NCBI GenBank assembly: GCA_026387835.1
Contig: JAPLKZ010000010.1
Location: 146,379 to 178,378 of the forward strand
Direction of reading: 5' to 3'
DNA from: Candidatus Saganbacteria bacterium
Lineage (GTDB): Bacteria > Margulisbacteria > WOR-1 > JAKLHX01
Length of the DNA stretch: 32,000 nucleotides
A program made the translations under genes and the position numbers. Below the pieces are notes generated by a model. That model saw only the letters and a program-made list of their open reading frames with translations, was not told the DNA's origin and ran no database searches. Of the stretch, positions 1-30,605 are shown piece by piece; within the stretch, counting starts at the first letter, position 1; each line of letters opens with the position of its first letter.

Positions 1-300
1 GTCTTTGATCTTGATCTCCGCACCGAGCTCTTTAAGTATGTAATACAGTATCAGCCTTGCTCCCGCCTCGTCCGCGCTCCGCCCAGATATTTTATCCTTG
101 TCTCCTGCCAGCAGTATCGCGCAGGCTTTTTCATAGTCCATCTTTCTCAGCTCTTCGGCGGGGATCTTTGTCCTGATCTGCCTTAAAAGTATTTTGTACG
201 CTTGGATCTCCTGCTGGGTAAAAAGCGGCTTGCCCTGCTCTGTGCTGCCGGTTGCTGCCGGAGCTTGTGAATTATTAACCGCAGCTGCCTGCTGTGCCAT
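1..300 (-). CDS. hypothetical protein, N-terminal ~100 codons only (continues past window edge)
   Basis: ATG at 300-298 (minus). AGGAG (307-311, minus) lies 6 nt upstream, 12 nt after the stop of the 848-aa gene. My translation MAQQAAAVNNSQAPAATGSTEQGKPLFTQQEIQAYKILLRQIRTKIPAEELRKMDYEKACAILLAGDKDK... stays open to position 1. It is absent from the ORF track because it has no in-window stop. No family recognised. Confidence 0.55.
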   Translation of the reverse strand, partial: MAQQAAAVNNSQAPAATGSTEQGKPLFTQQEIQAYKILLRQIRTKIPAEELRKMDYEKACAILLAGDKDKISGRSADEAGARLILYYILKELGAEIKIKD

Positions 301-312
301 TTTCAGCTCCTA

Positions 313-2859
313 TCAGTCGACGTTTACTCCGAGCTTTGCAGCATATTTCTTTCCTGGATCTGTGAGCTGACCTCTCTTGGCTATTTCTTGAAGTATTGCT
401 CTATAATCACTTAATGTTTTGTCTTCGCTCTTTAATTCTTCAAGGACCGCCGTTGCGGACGACTCGGCATTTTCATCAGTTAATTGATCTGTTGTTATTT
501 TAACGAACTTATTTCTTTTAATTACTAGCATTTTTGCAAATGTTGTCCCGCTCTCATCTTTCAGCATCTTGTCGGCAATTGCCTTAGAACCTTTATCTCC
601 TTCTTTAGCAGCTCCTGCTTGTGGAGCACCCGCACCTGCAGCGGGTGGCATCACTACGGCCGGACCTGTTGCCGGTTTCTGTTGCGTGCCACTTTTTGCC
701 ACATCACTGGCTGTTTTCTTATTTTTGTTTGCTCTTTCCAGCAATACCTTTGGCGGCAATTTTTGCGTGAAATCAAATGCCGAATATCCCCTTACTCCTT
801 CAGCCTCATCTTTTGCGGAATATTCTTTCACTTTTTCAGCCATCCATTCTTTCACCATCTTGTCCTTTTCATATTCGCTGACAGTTATATATCTTGGGGC
901 AGGGCTTTCAAATGTTGCTTCAACTATCATTTTGTCATCGGCAGACAGGCTCTTTTTCTCGGCTGTCTTTGTTACTTTATACAGATAACCTCCGTTTGTG
1001 CCATGCAACTCAAACTTTACATTTTCAGATGAAACCGATTGCTGCTTGAATATTTCCCCAAGCAACTGTCTTGGCGTTGAATCATCCTCTATGCATTTCC
1101 CGCTCGCATTTACAATAAAGTATCTTTCGCCCTGTTTTATGATTGTTTTTTTAGGGGCCTTCTCCATTCTTTCCCCCGTATCACTCAGGGTCTCAGCGTT
1201 ATATTCTTCAAGGACAACTTCAACCGTCTCCCTCTCATATTTCCCCTTCTTGATTCTTTCGTCAACTTTTGCTTCCGAGAACCTTTCGCTGTCAATAGCA
1301 TATAATTTCCCAAATACATCGACGGGCTTTGTCCTGTCATCGCTCGGACTGATCAGTCCCTCTTTTACCGTTATCTGGCTCTCAATAAATTTGTTATTTA
1401 TTAACTTCTTTATCAGATCCGGCAAGCTGCAAGTGCTGTTGTCCGCACTATAAGTTTGTCCGTTTAATTTGGAAATATTACTGTTTGTTTTTATTTCGCC
1501 TTCAGTACGGGTCGCGATCTGTTTTGCCGCATCTCCTTCCATTTCATATCCAAACGCTCTGACTTCTCCCGCCTTCTTGCTTTCTTTCCCTTTATCGTCC
1601 TTCTTTTGTATTTCAACCTTTTTATCCAATACTTTTTTGAGCCACGCTTGTAAACTTTTCCCCGCTTCAGGCCCCACATCTTCTGTCTTCAGCACCGGCA
1701 GCTCATCACTTTTCTTGATACCAAAATAACCTTCGATGAACTTGCTGTCGAGGTCTTTGCCAAAATATGACGCGAACACAAAACCTTTGAGGACAGATTG
1801 TTTTTGTTTAATATCGGCTAGATCGCTATAACTCTTTGCAGTGGTGTAATATGTCCGCGCAATAGGATCGAGCATGCTTCCAAGTCCTGCTGTTGAAACA
1901 TTTGATGTTGTTCCAAATGCCCAGCTTCTGATCGCATCGGCATTGTTTATTTGGGCAAGCGTTAAACTCCCGATAGTATCATGGCATTTTTTTATTGCGG
2001 CCACATCTGCCACAGTAAGCTCCCTGAAGGTCACCCCGGATTCGTTCCACTGCTTTGCGGTCGAAAGATATAATTCGCTCATATTGCCGGACGTTCTTCC
2101 GGACATATTAACGAACCATTGCACCCTTGCCCAGAATATCTGGAGTTCGTCCAGGGTGATTATTCCGTCAGCATTTCCGCCATTAAGGTTTACCATATCG
2201 ATAAGCCTGCCTAAGTCTGCATTTTTGAATTCTATTCCAAGATTTTTTAGATCGGCTATTTTTATTCCTTTAGAAATATCTAAGTCCTGCTTCTGTTTAT
2301 TTCCGTTGATAATGATTTCGATCTTACCACCGTTCACTTTCAATTCGGTTTTAGTTATGGTTTTCCCTAGTAATTTAGGCTTTGTTGTAGTAAACTCGGC
2401 TCCATTTCCTTTTTTCGTACCACCAATCGTTTCAAATAATTTGATCAACGCTTCATCCGTGCTAAGTGTGCTGTTGGCCGCAGTTAATGGCTTTGGTTCT
2501 GCAATGGGTTTATCGGCCGGTTTCGGTCCTGATTTCGGTGCCGGTACTGGTTTGGGGTTCTCCGTTGTTGACGTAGGTGTTGCTACAGGGTTTGGTGTTG
2601 GACCAGATATTTGAACCTCACCATTAACTACTTTAATTGGCACTCCTTTTTTTATTGCTTCTTCAATACCTCTATTGATCTCCGCTTGGCTGAATGTTTT
2701 ATTGTTATCAGTATCTTTAATGAATGCTCTTGCTCTTTCCAAAACACTTGGAATAGCTTTGAGCTCTTTGTTGCCTTTTACATCTACAATATTTTGTTGA
2801 TCCACTTTTAGTTTCGCTTTTGCACCACCGACTGTTATTTCAAAATCTATACTTGCCAT
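313..2859 (-). CDS. large orphan protein (848 aa) with EF-hand-like loops and a Pro-rich linker; no signal peptide
   Basis: Track ORF 313..2859. SD-like AAGGGGGAG lies upstream of the ATG at 2859. Pro-rich linker GPTPNPVATPTSTTENPKPVPAPKSGPKPADKPIAEPKP. EF-like loops DTDNNKTFSQAE and GGNADGIITLDE. The N-terminal ~185 aa resemble those of the 601-aa neighbour. No family recognised. Confidence 0.8.
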   Translation of the reverse strand: MASIDFEITVGGAKAKLKVDQQNIVDVKGNKELKAIPSVLERARAFIKDTDNNKTFSQAEINRGIEEAIKKGVPIKVVNGEVQISGPTPNPVATPTSTTENPKPVPAPKSGPKPADKPIAEPKPLTAANSTLSTDEALIKLFETIGGTKKGNGAEFTTTKPKLLGKTITKTELKVNGGKIEIIINGNKQKQDLDISKGIKIADLKNLGIEFKNADLGRLIDMVNLNGGNADGIITLDELQIFWARVQWFVNMSGRTSGNMSELYLSTAKQWNESGVTFRELTVADVAAIKKCHDTIGSLTLAQINNADAIRSWAFGTTSNVSTAGLGSMLDPIARTYYTTAKSYSDLADIKQKQSVLKGFVFASYFGKDLDSKFIEGYFGIKKSDELPVLKTEDVGPEAGKSLQAWLKKVLDKKVEIQKKDDKGKESKKAGEVRAFGYEMEGDAAKQIATRTEGEIKTNSNISKLNGQTYSADNSTCSLPDLIKKLINNKFIESQITVKEGLISPSDDRTKPVDVFGKLYAIDSERFSEAKVDERIKKGKYERETVEVVLEEYNAETLSDTGERMEKAPKKTIIKQGERYFIVNASGKCIEDDSTPRQLLGEIFKQQSVSSENVKFELHGTNGGYLYKVTKTAEKKSLSADDKMIVEATFESPAPRYITVSEYEKDKMVKEWMAEKVKEYSAKDEAEGVRGYSAFDFTQKLPPKVLLERANKNKKTASDVAKSGTQQKPATGPAVVMPPAAGAGAPQAGAAKEGDKGSKAIADKMLKDESGTTFAKMLVIKRNKFVKITTDQLTDENAESSATAVLEELKSEDKTLSDYRAILQEIAKRGQLTDPGKKYAAKLGVNVD
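2146..2181 (-). other. EF-hand-like 12-residue loop GGNADGIITLDE in the 848-aa protein
   Basis: RC of 2146-2181 reads GGCGGAAATGCTGACGGAATAATCACCCTGGACGAA. It matches EF-hand positions 3(N), 5(D), 6(G), 8(I) and 12(E). Position 1 is G rather than D. Confidence 0.4.
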
Positions 2860-2918
2860 TTTACTCTCCCCCTTTCGTATTTCCTGATCTGTATTTGTTC
2901 ATTTTTATAACCTTTCTC

Positions 2919-3401
2919 CTAGTTCATATTCAGCTCGTACTCAATCTCCATTTCCTGCGAATCGGAAAGCCCTAAGCCTGAATCCACATATTCTGAGCCG
3001 TAAGCCGTAAGCTGTAAGCCGTAAGCATTTGAGGAATCATGTATCCTCACGGTATTTGTCATATCCATGCCTTTGTTTAGATCCAAAGCATAAAGCTCAT
3101 AATTTAAAACGGAATTCATTGTTTTCATCTCTGAGCTCAAAATACTGCCAAAACTCTTTTGAATGCTGCATCTTGGATCCAGGATTTCCCCGCCTCCAGC
3201 GGGTCCATCCCCCTCTATGTATATATCGTCAATTTTTGGCTCAAATCCCATGGTTTCTTTAATGCAAAACTTGCCGTTATGCTGGCTTTTTATCTCGCGC
3301 TCCAGTATATGCTCAAAATCGCTGTAACTCGGCTCTCCTGCCCTTGCCGGGGTATTTTCCCGCTTTAAGTCTTCTTCCTCGTGTCCGATGTTTTCGCACA
3401 T
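2919..3401 (-). CDS. small acidic orphan protein (160 aa)
   Basis: Track ORF 2919..3515, but the internal ATG at 3401 has the SD GAAAGAGGTG 5-7 nt upstream, and a strong predicted promoter (3425-3452) lies inside the longer ORF. Product MCENIGHEEEDLKRENTPARAGEPSYSDFEHILERE... is Asp/Glu-rich. No family recognised. Confidence 0.65.
   Translation of the reverse strand: MCENIGHEEEDLKRENTPARAGEPSYSDFEHILEREIKSQHNGKFCIKETMGFEPKIDDIYIEGDGPAGGGEILDPRCSIQKSFGSILSSEMKTMNSVLNYELYALDLNKGMDMTNTVRIHDSSNAYGLQLTAYGSEYVDSGLGLSDSQEMEIEYELNMN
2994..3026. repeat. tandem heptanucleotide repeat TAAGC[CT]G, about 4.5 copies, inside the 160-aa CDS
   Basis: Plus strand reads tgagccg taagccg taagctg taagccg taagc. 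It encodes AYGLQLTAYGSE on the minus strand. Confidence 0.8.
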
Positions 3402-3424
3402 ATTACACCTCTTTCCTATGGCCC

Positions 3425-3452
3425 ATTTTAGACAGCTGCCTGCAGCTGTTAA
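3425..3452 (-). promoter_or_regulatory. sigma70-type promoter TTAACA-16-TAAAAT for the 160-aa/848-aa operon, overlapped by an 18-bp palindrome
   Basis: The minus strand reads TTAACA GCTGCAGGCAGCTGTC TAAAAT, with the -10 about 24 nt upstream of the ATG at 3401. Palindrome ACAGCTGC-CT-GCAGCTGT (3432-3449) spans the -35 and the spacer. Confidence 0.45.
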
Positions 3453-3605
3453 GAAGCACATTAGAAGGGGTGACAAGCCTGTTGTTGATTGCCACCCCAT
3501 GTAATATGCTTCCACTCAACTTTGTCATATTGTTCATTGAATTCCGCCCCCTGCTTGTCCCGCGAAGCTGCGGAGCATGGCGACGGAGCGAAGCGGGATA
3601 AAAGG

Positions 3606-3651
3606 CCATAAAAATACCGGAGCCCCCAAATAAAACATCTGAGGGTCCGGT
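3606..3651 (-). terminator. candidate intrinsic terminator (imperfect hairpin plus ATTTTTAT) inside the long spacer
   Basis: The minus strand reads ACCGGACCCTCA GATGTTTTATT TGGGGGCTCCGGT followed by ATTTTTAT. The stem is about 11 bp with one bulge and one mismatch. Confidence 0.35.
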
Positions 3652-3775
3652 TATACAAAAAAAAAAAAAAAATAATTCAAGTCCAACAGGCAAGTCCTTG
3701 ATCATTTTCTTTCCTTATACAAAAATATCGAATCCAACAGGCCTGCCTGCAGCAGGCAGGCAAACCTTCGATAAC
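3651..3775. repeat. two ~55-62 bp direct-repeat units (TTATACAAAAA...TCCAACAGGC...CCTT[GC]GAT) in intergenic DNA
   Basis: Unit 1 starts at 3651 and contains an A16 run (3657-3672). Unit 2 starts at 3715 and contains the perfect palindrome GCCTGCCTGC-A-GCAGGCAGGC (3741-3761). The shared block TCCAACAGGC occurs at 3682-3691 and 3733-3742. Confidence 0.7.
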
Positions 3776-3864
3776 TGACGCTCTTTGACGTTCTATATTT
3801 CTATCGGGTTTTGGGGGTCCAAACTTGCATGGGAAAAGGGGGTTGCGGTCCGCGGTTCGTAGTC

Positions 3865-3902
3865 AGCGGATGGCAGCTGTTTTGACCCGCCTGCCATCCG
3901 CT
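3865..3902 (-). other. 12-bp perfect hairpin just downstream of the 601-aa stop (3-prime stabiliser or atypical terminator)
   Basis: AGCGGATGGCAG (3865-3876) pairs with CTGCCATCCGCT (3891-3902) around a 14-nt loop. It begins 17 nt after the stop codon. No U-run follows on the minus strand. Confidence 0.4.
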
Positions 3903-3918
3903 CGGCTATAAACTGTGC

Positions 3919-5724
3919 TTATTTTGCCGTATCTATATCGATCCGGTTTGATATATCGAATTCGTCGTTATTTATAAGGTAAATCGTGTATTTTTTACCC
4001 GGTTCCAGTTTCGAAACACCTATTGTCCCGTCTTTATCATTCACGTTTACGACTGTGGTATTTACAACGGCGTTGTCCGTCACTATCTTAACGCTATATT
4101 TGGCCCTCTCTTTGGGAGCCGCGAAATTGATCACGGCAGAATCTCTGGTGATCTTATTTTTAAGATACCCCAAAGTACCGGTCCTATTCGTGATAGCGCC
4201 GGCAGGAATAACGACCGGGCTTGCTTCCGGTTTTGGCGCCGGAGGGGGAGCATTTTTTTTTGCCAGGGCCGCAGCTTGTTCCGCCTTTTTCCTGGTATCC
4301 GCTATTTTCGCTTCATCTTTCGCTTTTTTTGCGGCATCCGCTGCTTTTTGCGCCAGGAGCGCAGCTTGTTCCGCCTTCTTTTTGTCAGCAATTTTTTTTG
4401 CCGCATCCGCTGCTTTTTTTGCCGCATCCTCCGCTATTTTTGCGGCATCGTTTGCTTTAATTCTCTCTGAAATAATCTTTATGCCGCCTTCCGCAGCGTT
4501 CTTTTCCTCTTCCGTAGTCAGATACCCGGATCTAGCGAGCTCTACGACCAAAGGCAGGATCTTTTTATCCTTGTTCTCGTCGAGTTCCTCGGAATTCAGG
4601 ACCGCTTCCAGCTTCTTATTATTTGCATCAAGCTTTGCCTGTATTTGAGCCGCTTTTGTTAATTCCGACTGGGCTACCTGTTCTTTTTTGCCGGTTTCAT
4701 TCAGATCTTTATTTAGTTTTTCAAATATCTCCGATATACATCCCATAATATTTGGCGCAAACCTTTTTGCGTTTTCATAAGGCATTCTGGTACTTTCAAA
4801 CCATTTGGATTTTAGTTCATAGAACCTTGCATTTAATACCTGATCTGCCTGTTTCTGGATATCATCACTTATCCTTTTCACGTTCGCGATAACTTCCTTT
4901 TTAAGACCAACAAGCTCCTGGATATTTTTAGCAGCGTGCACTTTTTCTGATATTCCGGTGACAAATGCTTTCATAAGATCCGCCTTGTCCGGCCAACATT
5001 TTGTGAGGTCTACATAAACCGATAGCTTCGCAATTAAGTCCCTTTTTGCCGTCTCAAGAAGTTTTGCGTTTGATGCGGCATTTTCGGCTTTTACCTGCTC
5101 GAGATTTATTTCCGCTTTTTCTGCCTTGTCTGAGGCAGCATTTGCCGCATCTTCAAAAAGCCTCGTTTCATCATACCGGTTGATGATTATTTCAAGTTTT
5201 TTTCCGTCTTCTGTCACGCGACATACTCTGTTTAATCTTTCAATGGTTACCTGCGGATCTTTTTTATTCTTTTCCGATTCTTCAACGATCCATTCCATAA
5301 AACTCGGACAATGTACGCTCCGGCCTTTTAATATTACGTCGGTGGCCGGCCTTCCGGAAGATGTCAGATAAGGCATTAATTCCGACAACTGCAATTTCCC
5401 GTCTCCGTTTCGGTCCGGCACCCTTAGCGTTCTACTGATAAATATTTGAGGCACCTTTTCGCCATTTTCGCCATTTGACCTGATAATTACATTTGTCGAT
5501 TTTTTGATGGTTACCTGCGGATCTTTTTGGGTCATTTCCGGTTGTTCAACGGTACAGTCTGTAATGCCCAGCTTAACCTTATGACTTTTTAATATCAAAT
5601 CAATAACCGGCCTGTCGCAAGGAGACTTCAGATCGGGCATTATTTCCCGCAATTGTATTTTCCCGTCTTTGTTTAGATCCGGCACCGATAGTCCTCTACT
5701 GATAGTAACCTCTATGTCTGCCAT
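3919..5724 (-). CDS. large orphan protein (601 aa): two N-terminal EF-hand-loop modules, coiled-coil and Ala/Lys repeat region, C-terminal beta-rich (FN3-like) module; no signal peptide
   Basis: Track ORF. SD CAGGAGG lies 8 nt upstream of the ATG at 5724. Canonical loops DLNKDGKIQLRE and DRNGDGKLQLSE. Repeats of the type AAKKAADAAKKIADKKKAEQAALLAQK. C-terminal LEPGKKYTIYLINND. Confidence 0.85.
   Translation of the reverse strand: MADIEVTISRGLSVPDLNKDGKIQLREIMPDLKSPCDRPVIDLILKSHKVKLGITDCTVEQPEMTQKDPQVTIKKSTNVIIRSNGENGEKVPQIFISRTLRVPDRNGDGKLQLSELMPYLTSSGRPATDVILKGRSVHCPSFMEWIVEESEKNKKDPQVTIERLNRVCRVTEDGKKLEIIINRYDETRLFEDAANAASDKAEKAEINLEQVKAENAASNAKLLETAKRDLIAKLSVYVDLTKCWPDKADLMKAFVTGISEKVHAAKNIQELVGLKKEVIANVKRISDDIQKQADQVLNARFYELKSKWFESTRMPYENAKRFAPNIMGCISEIFEKLNKDLNETGKKEQVAQSELTKAAQIQAKLDANNKKLEAVLNSEELDENKDKKILPLVVELARSGYLTTEEEKNAAEGGIKIISERIKANDAAKIAEDAAKKAADAAKKIADKKKAEQAALLAQKAADAAKKAKDEAKIADTRKKAEQAAALAKKNAPPPAPKPEASPVVIPAGAITNRTGTLGYLKNKITRDSAVINFAAPKERAKYSVKIVTDNAVVNTTVVNVNDKDGTIGVSKLEPGKKYTIYLINNDEFDISNRIDIDTAK
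4261..4460. repeat. internal coding repeat (90-bp period) encoding Ala/Lys-rich helical repeats
   Basis: A 27-mer at 4261-4287 recurs at 4351-4377 with 3 mismatches (core gcagcttgttccgcctt is identical). Motif gc[cg]gcatcc..gct recurs near 4331, 4400, 4421 and 4442. Confidence 0.75.
5380..5415 (-). other. canonical EF-hand Ca2+-binding loop 2 (DRNGDGKLQLSE)
   Basis: RC reads GACCGAAACGGAGACGGGAAATTGCAGTTGTCGGAA. The consensus is the same as loop 1, and the loop lies 88 residues after it within a duplicated module. Confidence 0.6.
5644..5679 (-). other. canonical EF-hand Ca2+-binding loop 1 (DLNKDGKIQLRE)
   Basis: RC reads GATCTAAACAAAGACGGGAAAATACAATTGCGGGAA. It fits D-x-N-x-D-G-x-I-x-x-x-E at every liganding position. 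Confidence 0.6.
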
Positions 5725-5849: not shown

Positions 5850-5957
5850 TTACAGCTCTTCTTCCTTCTCCGTGAAAACTTTGTAGAAGCAGAAAAGCGT
5901 CAGGCCGATGATGGCGGCCCACGAGGCGGTCAGAAATATCCAGCCGTAAAAGTTCAT
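5850..5957 (-). CDS. 35-aa single-TM protein, probable MetS-like small subunit of the NSS transporter
   Basis: MNFYGWIFLTASWAAIIGLTLFCFYKVFTEKEEEL. Its ATG overlaps the NSS stop (ATGA, 5954-5957). One hydrophobic helix is followed by an acidic tail, as in small partners of MetP-type NSS transporters. Confidence 0.6.
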   Translation of the reverse strand: MNFYGWIFLTASWAAIIGLTLFCFYKVFTEKEEEL

Positions 5958-29423: not shown

Positions 29424-30605
29424 ATGAACATGTCTAGACCTATCAAACCTGTTGTCAGATCGCCATTACCCTCAATGGTTGTTTTGAAAGAGGATCTTTT
29501 GGCAAGAAGGGTACTTTATGGCCGACCGGCTGTTCGACCTTCTCAAGAAGCTGTCAACAATGCCATTTTAGAGGAAGAGGAAGGGTATTCGGGGTTGGAC
29601 CCGCGTAAACTAGACTTGATCGAAACCAACAGAAGGCCGATTATGGGAGCATTAAGAGCTGTTGAATTGCCGACCTTTCATGAATTTATCCCGCTAAACG
29701 CTGATTGCGTCGTTGAAATCGGAGCTGCCTCGAATTTCCTTTACAGGAACGTGCTGGATGAGCCGTTAAAAAGAATATGGAATCCGTTCGAAATAAACCT
29801 GGAAATTATTCGGACTAATAACCTGTTCGCACAACCTGGTATGATTCTGAGATCCGGTTCGGCCTACCGTCCGCTGTCTTCCGTGAAGGATGGCACCGCA
29901 GATGCCTGGGTAGGGCATTCTTCATATGATAGTATCGGTTTTTTGGAGATAGCTCTGCGTAATGCCGTGCGGTATCTGAAGCCCGGAGGAGTATTTATTC
30001 ATATCCAAGATGTTGTTCCCGCTAGTTTCCCTTCTCAGAGATATGTTCAATATTCATTGGGTGAAATGGATGTTAAATTACTTTCAATGGAATGCTTTTG
30101 CGGGAATAGCATTTTTCCCACAAAAGACGGGATCAATCCTCTTGATCCATATATTGATTTAAACGAGAGATTGATTGAAGCGATGAAAAAGAATGGATTG
30201 AATATCGTCAAGGATTCATTGGGAATTGGCGTATGGGTAGGCCCACGGGAAGATAGGCATGACTCTGACAAGAGAGATCTTGAAAAAAATTATTTCTTAT
30301 GGAATAAAGGCAAGCTTTTCTGTGCTGAAACGCTAATTTCTGAGGATGATAATCCGCCGCTCAAAGCCTTCTTGTGTGCACTAAAAAAAAATTCATCCAT
30401 TACGTTAATTGAAGACAAAAAAATAAGCTGGTCCTCGTTTTTAGCACTTATGAGGGGACGGAAGCGTTCCACTGTTCGATTAGAGCCTCATTCATACAGT
30501 GTCGACATGGATCATCCTGTAATTATATATCCTGCAAGTCTTCTTAAACAAGCCGGATTCGTTCAGGAAATTTTTATGGCTGATATCGTTGTTGGAACAA
30601 AGTAA
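29424..30605 (+). CDS. orphan protein with class I methyltransferase-like core and degenerate SAM-binding loop
   Basis: 393 aa. CVVEIGAASNFL sits where motif I (V/I-L-E-x-G-x-G-x-G) is expected. ADAWVGHSSYDSIGFLEIALRNAVRYLKPGGVFIHIQD resembles the post-motif III LKPGG region. The ~190 C-terminal residues are unrecognised. Confidence 0.6.
   Translation: MNMSRPIKPVVRSPLPSMVVLKEDLLARRVLYGRPAVRPSQEAVNNAILEEEEGYSGLDPRKLDLIETNRRPIMGALRAVELPTFHEFIPLNADCVVEIGAASNFLYRNVLDEPLKRIWNPFEINLEIIRTNNLFAQPGMILRSGSAYRPLSSVKDGTADAWVGHSSYDSIGFLEIALRNAVRYLKPGGVFIHIQDVVPASFPSQRYVQYSLGEMDVKLLSMECFCGNSIFPTKDGINPLDPYIDLNERLIEAMKKNGLNIVKDSLGIGVWVGPREDRHDSDKRDLEKNYFLWNKGKLFCAETLISEDDNPPLKAFLCALKKNSSITLIEDKKISWSSFLALMRGRKRSTVRLEPHSYSVDMDHPVIIYPASLLKQAGFVQEIFMADIVVGTK

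Follow-up and report, generated by a model that had tools for sequence, protein, structure and literature searches.

Signal-less orphan genes beside a giant SecA-domain gene in a Candidatus Saganbacteria genome

At one end of a 32,000-nucleotide stretch of Candidatus Saganbacteria DNA (hereafter the window; positions 146,379-178,378 of contig JAPLKZ010000010.1, assembly GCA_026387835.1) lies a block of four minus-strand genes, three of which encode proteins of 601, 160 and 848 amino acids (P601, P160 and P848) while the fourth runs past the left window edge. The fourth gene has 4,814 codons and encodes a giant protein with a divergent SecA-type motor. This identity shifts the question raised by the block from that of a new Ca2+ system to that of the accessory genes of a giant SecA-domain locus; it was missed by an earlier note on the window, since the bulk of the gene lies outside it. 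The reading favored here, with a probability of about 40%, is that the block encodes modular proteins that evolve fast, are probably associated with the envelope and act as partners at a giant SecA-domain locus. The organism is uncultured and the genes are without relatives, and the case therefore rests on gene order and motifs for now.

The giant protein and its SecA-type motor

On the longest of the Logan contigs that carry the locus, the gene starting at window position 300 is 4,814 codons long, and its reading frame was checked against the NCBI protein, which corresponds to residues 202-4814. A divergent SecA motor, consisting of the first nucleotide-binding domain (NBD1) and the preprotein cross-linking domain (PPXD), occupies residues ~2436-2742. 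Within this region Pfam assigns SecA_DEAD with 35.7 bits (gathering threshold 24.6) and SecA_PP_bind with 30 bits (gathering threshold 23.5) to residues 2479-2721, and a phmmer search of the Protein Data Bank (PDB) matches the giant to M. tuberculosis SecA1 (1nkt) with an E-value of 8.8e-16. A Walker A motif (GGGKS) and a DEAD-like motif (ADEGEYFMID) are present. The NCBIfam SecA model scores 69.7 bits, aligning at model positions 126-390 of 814 only, while the NCBIfam SecA2 models score below the SecA models and far under their own cut-offs. No scaffold or wing domain of SecA was detected in the giant (Pfam SecA_SW gives no match and the NCBIfam SecA match is partial), and motifs resembling those of the second nucleotide-binding domain were recognized by eye only. 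Weak hydropathy peaks, with Kyte-Doolittle means over 19 residues of 1.2-1.65, occur near residues 1559-1610 and 3968-4180. The earlier note had applied the word giant to the two large proteins of the block, which at 601 and 848 amino acids do not warrant it; the word suits the gene of which the window holds the fragment.

Several further observations concern the same protein. Its SecA-like region (P0002 residues 2275-2541) matches phrog_32805, a family of unknown function, with an E-value of 4.5e-11, which implies that divergent SecA-like regions of this kind are also found in some phages. Two repeated helix-loop-helix modules (...ARLILYYILKELGAEIKIKDGKISFEELLVGLGQL... and ...ARWMLAQIMKKLGATTFKGEEKDIPGADELLTMLGEI...) occur at residues ~74-115 and ~196-240, the first of them beginning inside window positions 1-300, and in sequence they look like degenerate EF-hands in which positions 1 and 3 no longer carry acidic ligands. 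The NCBI model of the giant, NTZ10_04770, comprises 4,613 amino acids and starts at Met202 of the 4,814-residue open reading frame (ORF) on the Logan contig; locus tags _04775 and _04780 fall between NTZ10_04770 and P848. The metagenome-assembled genome (MAG) may carry another local error, in addition to the one described below, that splits the N-terminus of the giant (residues 101-201).

Organization of the block and reality of its genes

All coordinates of the block given here refer to the minus strand. P601 (positions 3919-5724; NCBI NTZ10_04800) comes first, followed by P160 (2919-3401; NTZ10_04790, MCX5749539.1), P848 (313-2859; NTZ10_04785) and the start of the giant gene (1-300), which contributes 100 open codons without a stop and continues past the left window edge. 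The four co-directional frames are where the earlier note placed them and have the sizes it gave (601, 160, 848 and at least 100 amino acids), and the operon-like spacing it described was likewise confirmed. The spacer between P160 and P848 measures 59 nucleotides (2860-2918) and holds a Shine-Dalgarno (SD) site, GGGGGAG, at 2872-2866; that between P848 and the giant gene measures 12 nucleotides (301-312), with the SD site AGGAG at 311-307. P160 is itself preceded by GAGG at 3411-3408. The best sigma-70-like promoter match of the block, a match to consensus only, lies 24 nucleotides before the P160 ATG (3425-3452; TTAACA, a 16-nucleotide spacer and TAAAAT, with 10 of 12 positions matching). 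Given the two short gaps, each with an SD site, and the promoter-like match ahead of P160, it is P160, P848 and the giant gene that most likely form an operon and would be transcribed together.

P601 is probably a separate transcription unit. It has an SD site of its own (AGGAGG, upstream of position 5724) and sits 517 nucleotides upstream of P160. Directly 3' of its stop codon is a 12-base-pair hairpin (3866-3901; GCGGATGGCAG...CTGCCATCCGC), which is strong and terminator-like but has no T tract, and the 219-nucleotide region of the spacer that contains this hairpin has a folding z-score of -3.18. An Rfam search of the 517-nucleotide spacer gave no match to a noncoding RNA or riboswitch. The spacer also holds a perfect 10-base-pair palindrome, GCCTGCCTGC-T-GCAGGCAGGC, at 3741-3761, and a second palindrome, ACAGCTGCCTGCAGCTG, lies at 3432-3448, inside the spacer of the promoter-like site before P160. 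The core CAGCTGCC is common to both palindromes and the hairpin after P601. Possible roles for the palindromes are as operators or as structured RNA elements.

With codon log-odds trained on the remaining genes of the window, the block genes score positively in frame 0 only (0.17 for P848, 0.24 for P601 and 0.08 for P160). Together with an in-frame duplication with conserved motifs in P601, described below, this identifies the block ORFs as genes rather than chance ORFs. An exact-match look-up of P848 led to seven Logan contigs from several sequencing runs, all with the same locus, and the coding sequence of the block is identical on independent assemblies. That the ORFs are an artefact of annotation might be argued from the lack of homologues and from one local assembly anomaly in the intergenic region, but this view would have to accommodate open frames of 1.8 and 2.5 kb at ~44% GC with SD sites, in addition to the codon bias, duplication and recurrence just mentioned. 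It is extremely improbable, and for P601 and P848 it is essentially refuted.

The anomaly itself is confined to one place. Compared over ~7.4 kb with three independent Logan contigs, the window differs only at position 3633 and at 3657-3667, where it has a run of 17 T and the Logan contigs have TTTTTGGTGGGTAATGG, of equal length with eight T-to-G/A changes. This looks like a local assembly or polishing error of the MAG, or else a hypervariable spot. The T run falls within a 100-codon ORF at 3403-3705, called by a gene finder on the Logan contigs and not present in the protein collection, whose stop codon and the ATG of P160 are one base apart (TAA-T-ATG). The codon score of this ORF is weak (0.04), and it must be considered doubtful, possibly an annotation artefact.

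Orphan status and turnover of the locus

Word-indexed searches of 5.8e9 clusters with P848 and with P601 retrieved in each case the query itself only, as did an exhaustive phmmer search of 1.84 billion (1.84e9) representative proteins with P848. The word-indexed search with the giant gave itself and one weak SecA-like match, and P160, for which an exact-sequence look-up only was used, is a singleton cluster. P601, P160 and P848, whether as whole proteins or as isolated domains, had no match above threshold in Pfam, NCBIfam, PADLOC or PHROGs, which agrees with the statement in the earlier note that no characterized family was recognizable. Sequence searches of the PDB were negative, tblastn searches found no similarity of P848 and P160 to phages and plasmids or of P601 to phages, and no relatives turned up when the giant, P848 and the P601 repeat alignment were used to scan viral contigs, metagenome contigs and the contigs of GTDB genomes. 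P601, P160 and P848 are ORFans, and they appear to be lineage-restricted and fast-evolving. The sequence searches place their apparent orphan status on much firmer ground than a reading of the letters alone allowed.

It is possible that the block genes are functionally unrelated to one another, having been acquired recently or having arisen de novo as fast-evolving genes in a variable hotspot downstream of the neighboring SNF-family transporter gene, and that they constitute no system at all. None of the 80 related loci fetched around homologues of this transporter carries any of the block genes, and gene order is not conserved among these loci. In the closest of them (locus L006 of MAG SRP220891_co1_490), where the SNF transporter is 79% identical, an unrelated orphan ORF of 2,469 amino acids is found at the same place. 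The ratio of nonsynonymous to synonymous divergence (dN/dS) between the two P601 modules is near 0.7. The composition of the block points in the same direction: the G+C content at third codon positions (GC3) is 0.39-0.50 in the block versus 0.55-0.66 in the adjacent housekeeping genes, and codon scores are lower. On the other hand, other housekeeping genes of the window have a similarly low GC3, and the AT-richness of the block that had been noted by eye, while real, is modest (43.5% GC compared with 46.4% in the rest of the window). Moreover, the window holds no tRNA, integrase or transposase gene, the block has no phage or plasmid similarity, the tight spacing with SD sites favors an organized operon, and several independent sequencing runs gave an identical locus. 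A chance gathering of unrelated genes is accordingly judged unlikely, though plausible enough to be kept in view.

The closest relative locus deserves mention in its own right. The region downstream of its SNF transporter gene (L006 12467-19876) encodes a 23S-rRNA-intervening-sequence protein and the 2,469-residue ORF; the latter gave no Pfam match, resembles none of the block genes and is hydrophobic in its C-terminal third. Large orphan genes may preferentially accumulate at this site behind the SNF transporter gene.

Architecture of P601

P601 is predicted to be a modular fibrous protein, with two loop modules followed by a helical stalk, a Pro-rich linker and a sandwich resembling immunoglobulin (Ig) or fn3 domains. 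Residues 1-176 (positions 5197-5724) are a tandem duplication of an 88-residue module (residues 1-88 and 89-176), the copies of which share 41% amino acid identity and 63% nucleotide identity and are visible in the DNA as repeats spaced 264 nucleotides apart. Each copy contains one EF/DxDxDG loop and then an exit helix. The first loop, DLNKDGKIQLRE, spans residues 16-27 (5644-5679) and the second, DRNGDGKLQLSE, residues 104-115 (5380-5415); both fit the strict EF-hand consensus (expectation from shuffled sequences 0.000) as well as a PROSITE-like pattern (0.012). The loop and its flanks are the best-conserved part of the module (12/17 residues identical versus 24/72 elsewhere; Fisher p = 0.0065), and dN/dS between the modules is lower there (0.53) than for the module as a whole (0.73). 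The loop motif appears from this to be under some constraint, in a protein that overall seems to be evolving fast. The two loops are 88 residues apart, on separate modules, and unpaired. In a PDB search the second loop aligns with a calmodulin loop and its exit helix (E = 0.62), and the isolated repeat with the first loop scores 13.3 bits against Pfam EF-hand_5.

The modules are followed at residues ~186-491 (4252-5169) by a long alpha-helical, coiled-coil-like stalk of ~300 residues, which ends in Ala/Lys heptad repeats that appear as 21-nucleotide DNA repeats at 4393-4449. A TolA-like identity of the stalk was rejected, the match being weak (19.2 bits against a cut-off of 213) and compositional. 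After the Pro-rich linker NAPPPAPKPEASP comes a predicted beta-sandwich of ~95 residues (residues 505-601; 3922-4212), which is probably Ig/fn3-like: Pfam fn3 matches with an E-value of 7e-4 and 20.2 bits (gathering threshold 25), and Foldseek returns filamin, Ig and fn3 structures at E-values of 0.012-0.2 from a low-confidence model, with a predicted local distance difference test (pLDDT) score of about 50-60 in this part. By analogy, the Ig/fn3-like domain, Pro-rich linkers and Ala/Lys helices of P601 would belong to the domain vocabulary of envelope and surface proteins.

Architecture of P848 and P160

P848 is predicted to be a multi-domain protein with two degenerate EF-like helix-loop-helix motifs. 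The first is a near-miss EF-type loop at residues 49-60 (2680-2715; DTDNNKTFSQAE) with Lys at position 6 and Phe at position 8; it fits the relaxed pattern only, for which shuffles give an expectation of 0.04, and in a low-confidence AlphaFold2 (AF2) model it is flanked by predicted helices at residues 37-48 and 58-72. The second, at residues 224-238 (2146-2190; NLNGGNADGIITLDE), is a non-canonical EF-like loop (GNADGIITLDE, with Gly at position 1) lying between predicted helices 214-226 and 236-253 of the same model. Pfam EF-hand profiles do not match P848. Thus, of the strict EF loops that had been ascribed to both large proteins, the two in P601 stand, whereas P848 has near-miss loops only. 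The beta-rich C-terminal module ascribed to both fares similarly, since it holds weakly for P601 through the fn3 match but not for P848, the C-terminus of which is predicted to be helical in the low-confidence model. Pro-rich linkers are found in P848 at residues ~86-125 and ~725-745.

P160 is acidic, with a net charge of -18. Its coding sequence contains a 7-nucleotide tandem repeat, AGCCGTA, at 2996-3026 (4.4 copies, 91% matches). A 7-nucleotide unit does not correspond to a whole number of codons, and slippage would therefore throw the first operon gene out of frame; four public contigs showed no difference in copy number.

The earlier note regarded P601 and P848 as paralogues, a claim that is rejected here, paralogy between them not being detectable. 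The best BLASTP E-value between them is 0.2, their N-terminal 200 residues align no better than shuffled sequences (z of 0.06 for local and 0.40 for global alignment), and a hidden Markov model (HMM) of the P601 repeat gives P848 0.5 bits, the same level as a HisG control. The K[LI]EIIIN motifs and MA[DS]I[ED] starts that it listed are present, as KLEIIIN at residue 176 of P601 and KIEIIIN at residue 179 of P848 and as MADIE and MASID, respectively. For a stretch of five identical residues shared at nearly equal positions, the post hoc p is ~0.01, and its surroundings do not align. A BLASTP match between P848 residues 3-146 and giant residues 3215-3373 (E = 0.002) was also rejected, as it results from Pro/Ala-rich linkers and disappears when the Pro-rich linker is removed (z = -0.36). 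A "half EF-hand" pattern, DG.[IL].[LF].E[LI], which was defined post hoc after the sites had been seen, occurs in P601 (two copies), in the giant (residue 100) and in P848, with no occurrence in 476,000 background residues. As a motif shared by all three proteins it did not hold up to a P601-only HMM, which ranked the other two sites 48th and 90th (P848) of 717 matches. A motif common to P601, P848 and the giant may be treated as a lead, not as evidence.

Localization and possible role of the block proteins

Neither a signal peptide nor a transmembrane segment was found in P601, P160 or P848 by a hydropathy heuristic (maximum 19-residue Kyte-Doolittle mean below 0.9, polar N-termini), and there is no twin-arginine translocation (Tat) motif or lipobox in these proteins. 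The ORFs of P601 and P848 begin at the first start codon after a stop, so that an upstream extension is impossible. The absence of signals is thus as the earlier note had described it.

From this absence and from the Ca2+-type loops of P601, the earlier note had drawn an analogy to type I secretion systems (T1SS), in which P601 and P848 would be paralogous signal-less substrates that are secreted by an ATP-binding cassette (ABC) transporter, a membrane fusion protein (MFP) and TolC, and fold with Ca2+ outside the cell. The analogy fails because none of the proteins contains the GGxGxD repeat of the repeats-in-toxin (RTX) family and the 32-kb window contains no ABC, MFP or TolC gene. In addition, the Ca2+ loops are N-terminal rather than C-terminal, and the supposed paralogy was not found. 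Type I secretion of these proteins is very improbable.

A cytoplasmic role is a more serious possibility. P601, and perhaps P848, could form an intracellular coiled-coil scaffold or filament that responds to Ca2+ and is never exported, in which case adjacency to the giant gene would be meaningless or would reflect an interaction in the cytoplasm. The lack of any signal peptide, Tat motif, lipobox or transmembrane segment fits such a role, as does the ~300-residue helical region of P601, and bacterial cytoskeletal proteins rich in coiled coils are typically restricted to particular lineages and not easily found by sequence comparison. However, most bacterial fn3/Ig-like domains, Pro-rich linkers and DxDxDG loops lie outside the cytoplasm, the resting Ca2+ concentration of the cytoplasm is low for such loops, and P160 and P848 are operon-linked to a protein with a translocase motor. 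An intracellular scaffold is therefore considered less than probable, while remaining a substantial competitor.

In the favored reading, P160, P848 and P601 would work together with the giant protein, perhaps as substrates or as components of the surface or envelope. Export, if it takes place, might proceed through the SecA-like motor of a membrane-associated giant, in the way that SecA2 acts on signal-less substrates. Because the block proteins have no Sec, Tat or lipoprotein signal, the giant's own motor would be the most economical route. Outside the cell, Ca2+ on the P601 loops could stabilize or dock the N-terminal modules, and P160 may be an acidic chaperone or adaptor. A more specific version makes the locus a self-contained export module: the giant's motor would export P848, and possibly P601 too, P160 would be the dedicated chaperone or adaptor, and the P601 modules would lock or dock in response to Ca2+ outside the cell. 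This version is rather improbable; if true, it would for the first time tie the SecA domains of bacterial giant proteins to a concrete set of substrates.

A number of points weigh against partnership with the giant at the envelope. Without a signal peptide or transmembrane segment, the default location of the block proteins is the cytoplasm. P601 is parted from the operon by 517 nucleotides and a hairpin, and adjacency is consequently its sole link to the giant gene. The block genes are missing from all 80 of the SNF-transporter loci. The Ca2+-type loops of P601 fall short of the Pfam thresholds, with 23.3 bits for EF-hand_5 on the second loop (gathering threshold 25.9) and 12-18 bits for other EF profiles (thresholds 25-30); the profile alignments, at positions 9-22 of 25, are limited to the loop and exit helix; a proline occupies position -1 of each loop; and the low-confidence AF2 model (pLDDT about 45-54) has a strand before the loop. 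For these reasons the loops are named here DxDxDG/EF-type loop-helix motifs and not EF-hand domains. The single-sequence AF2 models are of low confidence, with pLDDT values of 50 for P601 and 38 for P848, and are too poor for fold assignment. Finally, the role of the SecA-like domain in giant proteins is a hypothesis in the literature, and the conserved upstream genes in Omnitrophota resemble type II secretion systems (T2SS), unlike the genes of this locus (West-Roberts et al., bioRxiv 10.1101/2023.11.21.568195).

Divergent SecA-type domains in giant bacterial proteins have already been reported, with export proposed as their role. At the present locus, compact modular proteins without signal peptides appear to share an operon with such a giant, next to a neighbor, P601, with Ca2+-type loops and predicted surface-type domains. 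If the link is functional, partners of 160-848 amino acids would be tractable handles on a SecA-like motor, for instance through binding, ATPase stimulation or heterologous export. If it is not, the block would be one more lineage-specific ORFan set of the candidate-phylum genomes, showing fast turnover of a locus.

Neighboring genes

A hydrophobic ORF of 35 amino acids, MNFYGWIFLTASWAAIIGLTLFCFYKVFTEKEEEL, lies at 5850-5957 on the minus strand, its ATG overlapping the stop codon of the SNF-family transporter gene (ATGA). A similar peptide, MNLYGWFFLVTSWSFIIVLAGFCFYKVFTGEDEE, follows the SNF transporter in a relative (locus L005). The 35-residue peptide probably works with the transporter in the membrane, as a small subunit or partner. 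Farther along the window, an ORF of 393 amino acids at 29424-30605 on the plus strand has no Pfam match at E <=1e-4 and a low GC3 (0.40), and its codon score is the lowest of any gene outside the block; it is possibly another orphan gene among housekeeping genes.

Comparison with known systems

The features of P601 and P848 recall several characterized families in part. Like RTX proteins and other T1SS substrates, the block proteins are signal-less with Ca2+-type motifs, but they do not have the C-terminal signal architecture. The Ala/Lys stalk, Pro-rich linker and small globular C-terminal domain of P601 resemble the organization of TolA domain II and streptococcal M-like proteins; the similarity is compositional, and P601 lacks the transmembrane anchor, signal peptide, LPXTG motif and TolA domain III. 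With respect to EF-hand and DxDxDG loops (Pfam EF-hand_1/5/6/7, PS00018), the P601 loops match at positions 1, 3, 5, 6, 8 and 12 and have the exit helix, whereas no entering helix is apparent and the loops are not paired in the way usual for EF-hands. There is no dockerin match in P601.

SecA2 systems, including mycobacterial and Listeria SecA2 and the SecA2/SecY2 pair of streptococci, offer a closer parallel. They employ a second, divergent SecA-type motor dedicated to few substrates, some of which lack classical signal peptides, and SecA2/SecY2 are encoded beside their substrates. SecA2 is a free protein of ~800 amino acids, however, whereas the motor described here is a domain inside a protein of 4,814 amino acids, and no SecY2 or Asp genes and no serine-rich repeat substrate were seen at this locus.

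The nearest counterparts of the giant itself are the proteins described from Omnitrophota, Actinobacteria and others, which carry divergent SecA_DEAD and PP_bind domains without scaffold or wing, as well as numerous transmembrane helices. Their SecA domain was suggested to export either the giant in which it resides or accessory proteins (West-Roberts et al., bioRxiv 10.1101/2023.11.21.568195). At 4,814 amino acids the present protein is far smaller than the proteins of at least 30,000 amino acids on which that study focused, and it also falls under the "very large" class of at least 5,000 amino acids. The glycosyl hydrolase, peptidase and dockerin domains of those giants have no equivalent in it, and its upstream genes are signal-less ORFans rather than a T2SS-like locus. 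The 'Dockerin-type' giants share with this locus the Ca2+/EF-hand theme, with the difference that the loops here are on a separate neighboring protein. The likeness to the Omnitrophota 'Archaeovorin' and 'Dockerin-type' proteins and their actinobacterial relatives lies in the combination of SecA NBD1 and PPXD with no detectable scaffold or wing, in weakly hydrophobic, possibly membrane-spanning segments and long unannotated stretches, and in the host phylum, Margulisbacteria, to which Saganbacteria belong. Margulisbacteria are one of the phyla listed as having many very large genes (bioRxiv 10.1101/2023.11.21.568195) and are also named as enriched in huge, uncharacterized proteins (PMC11573180).

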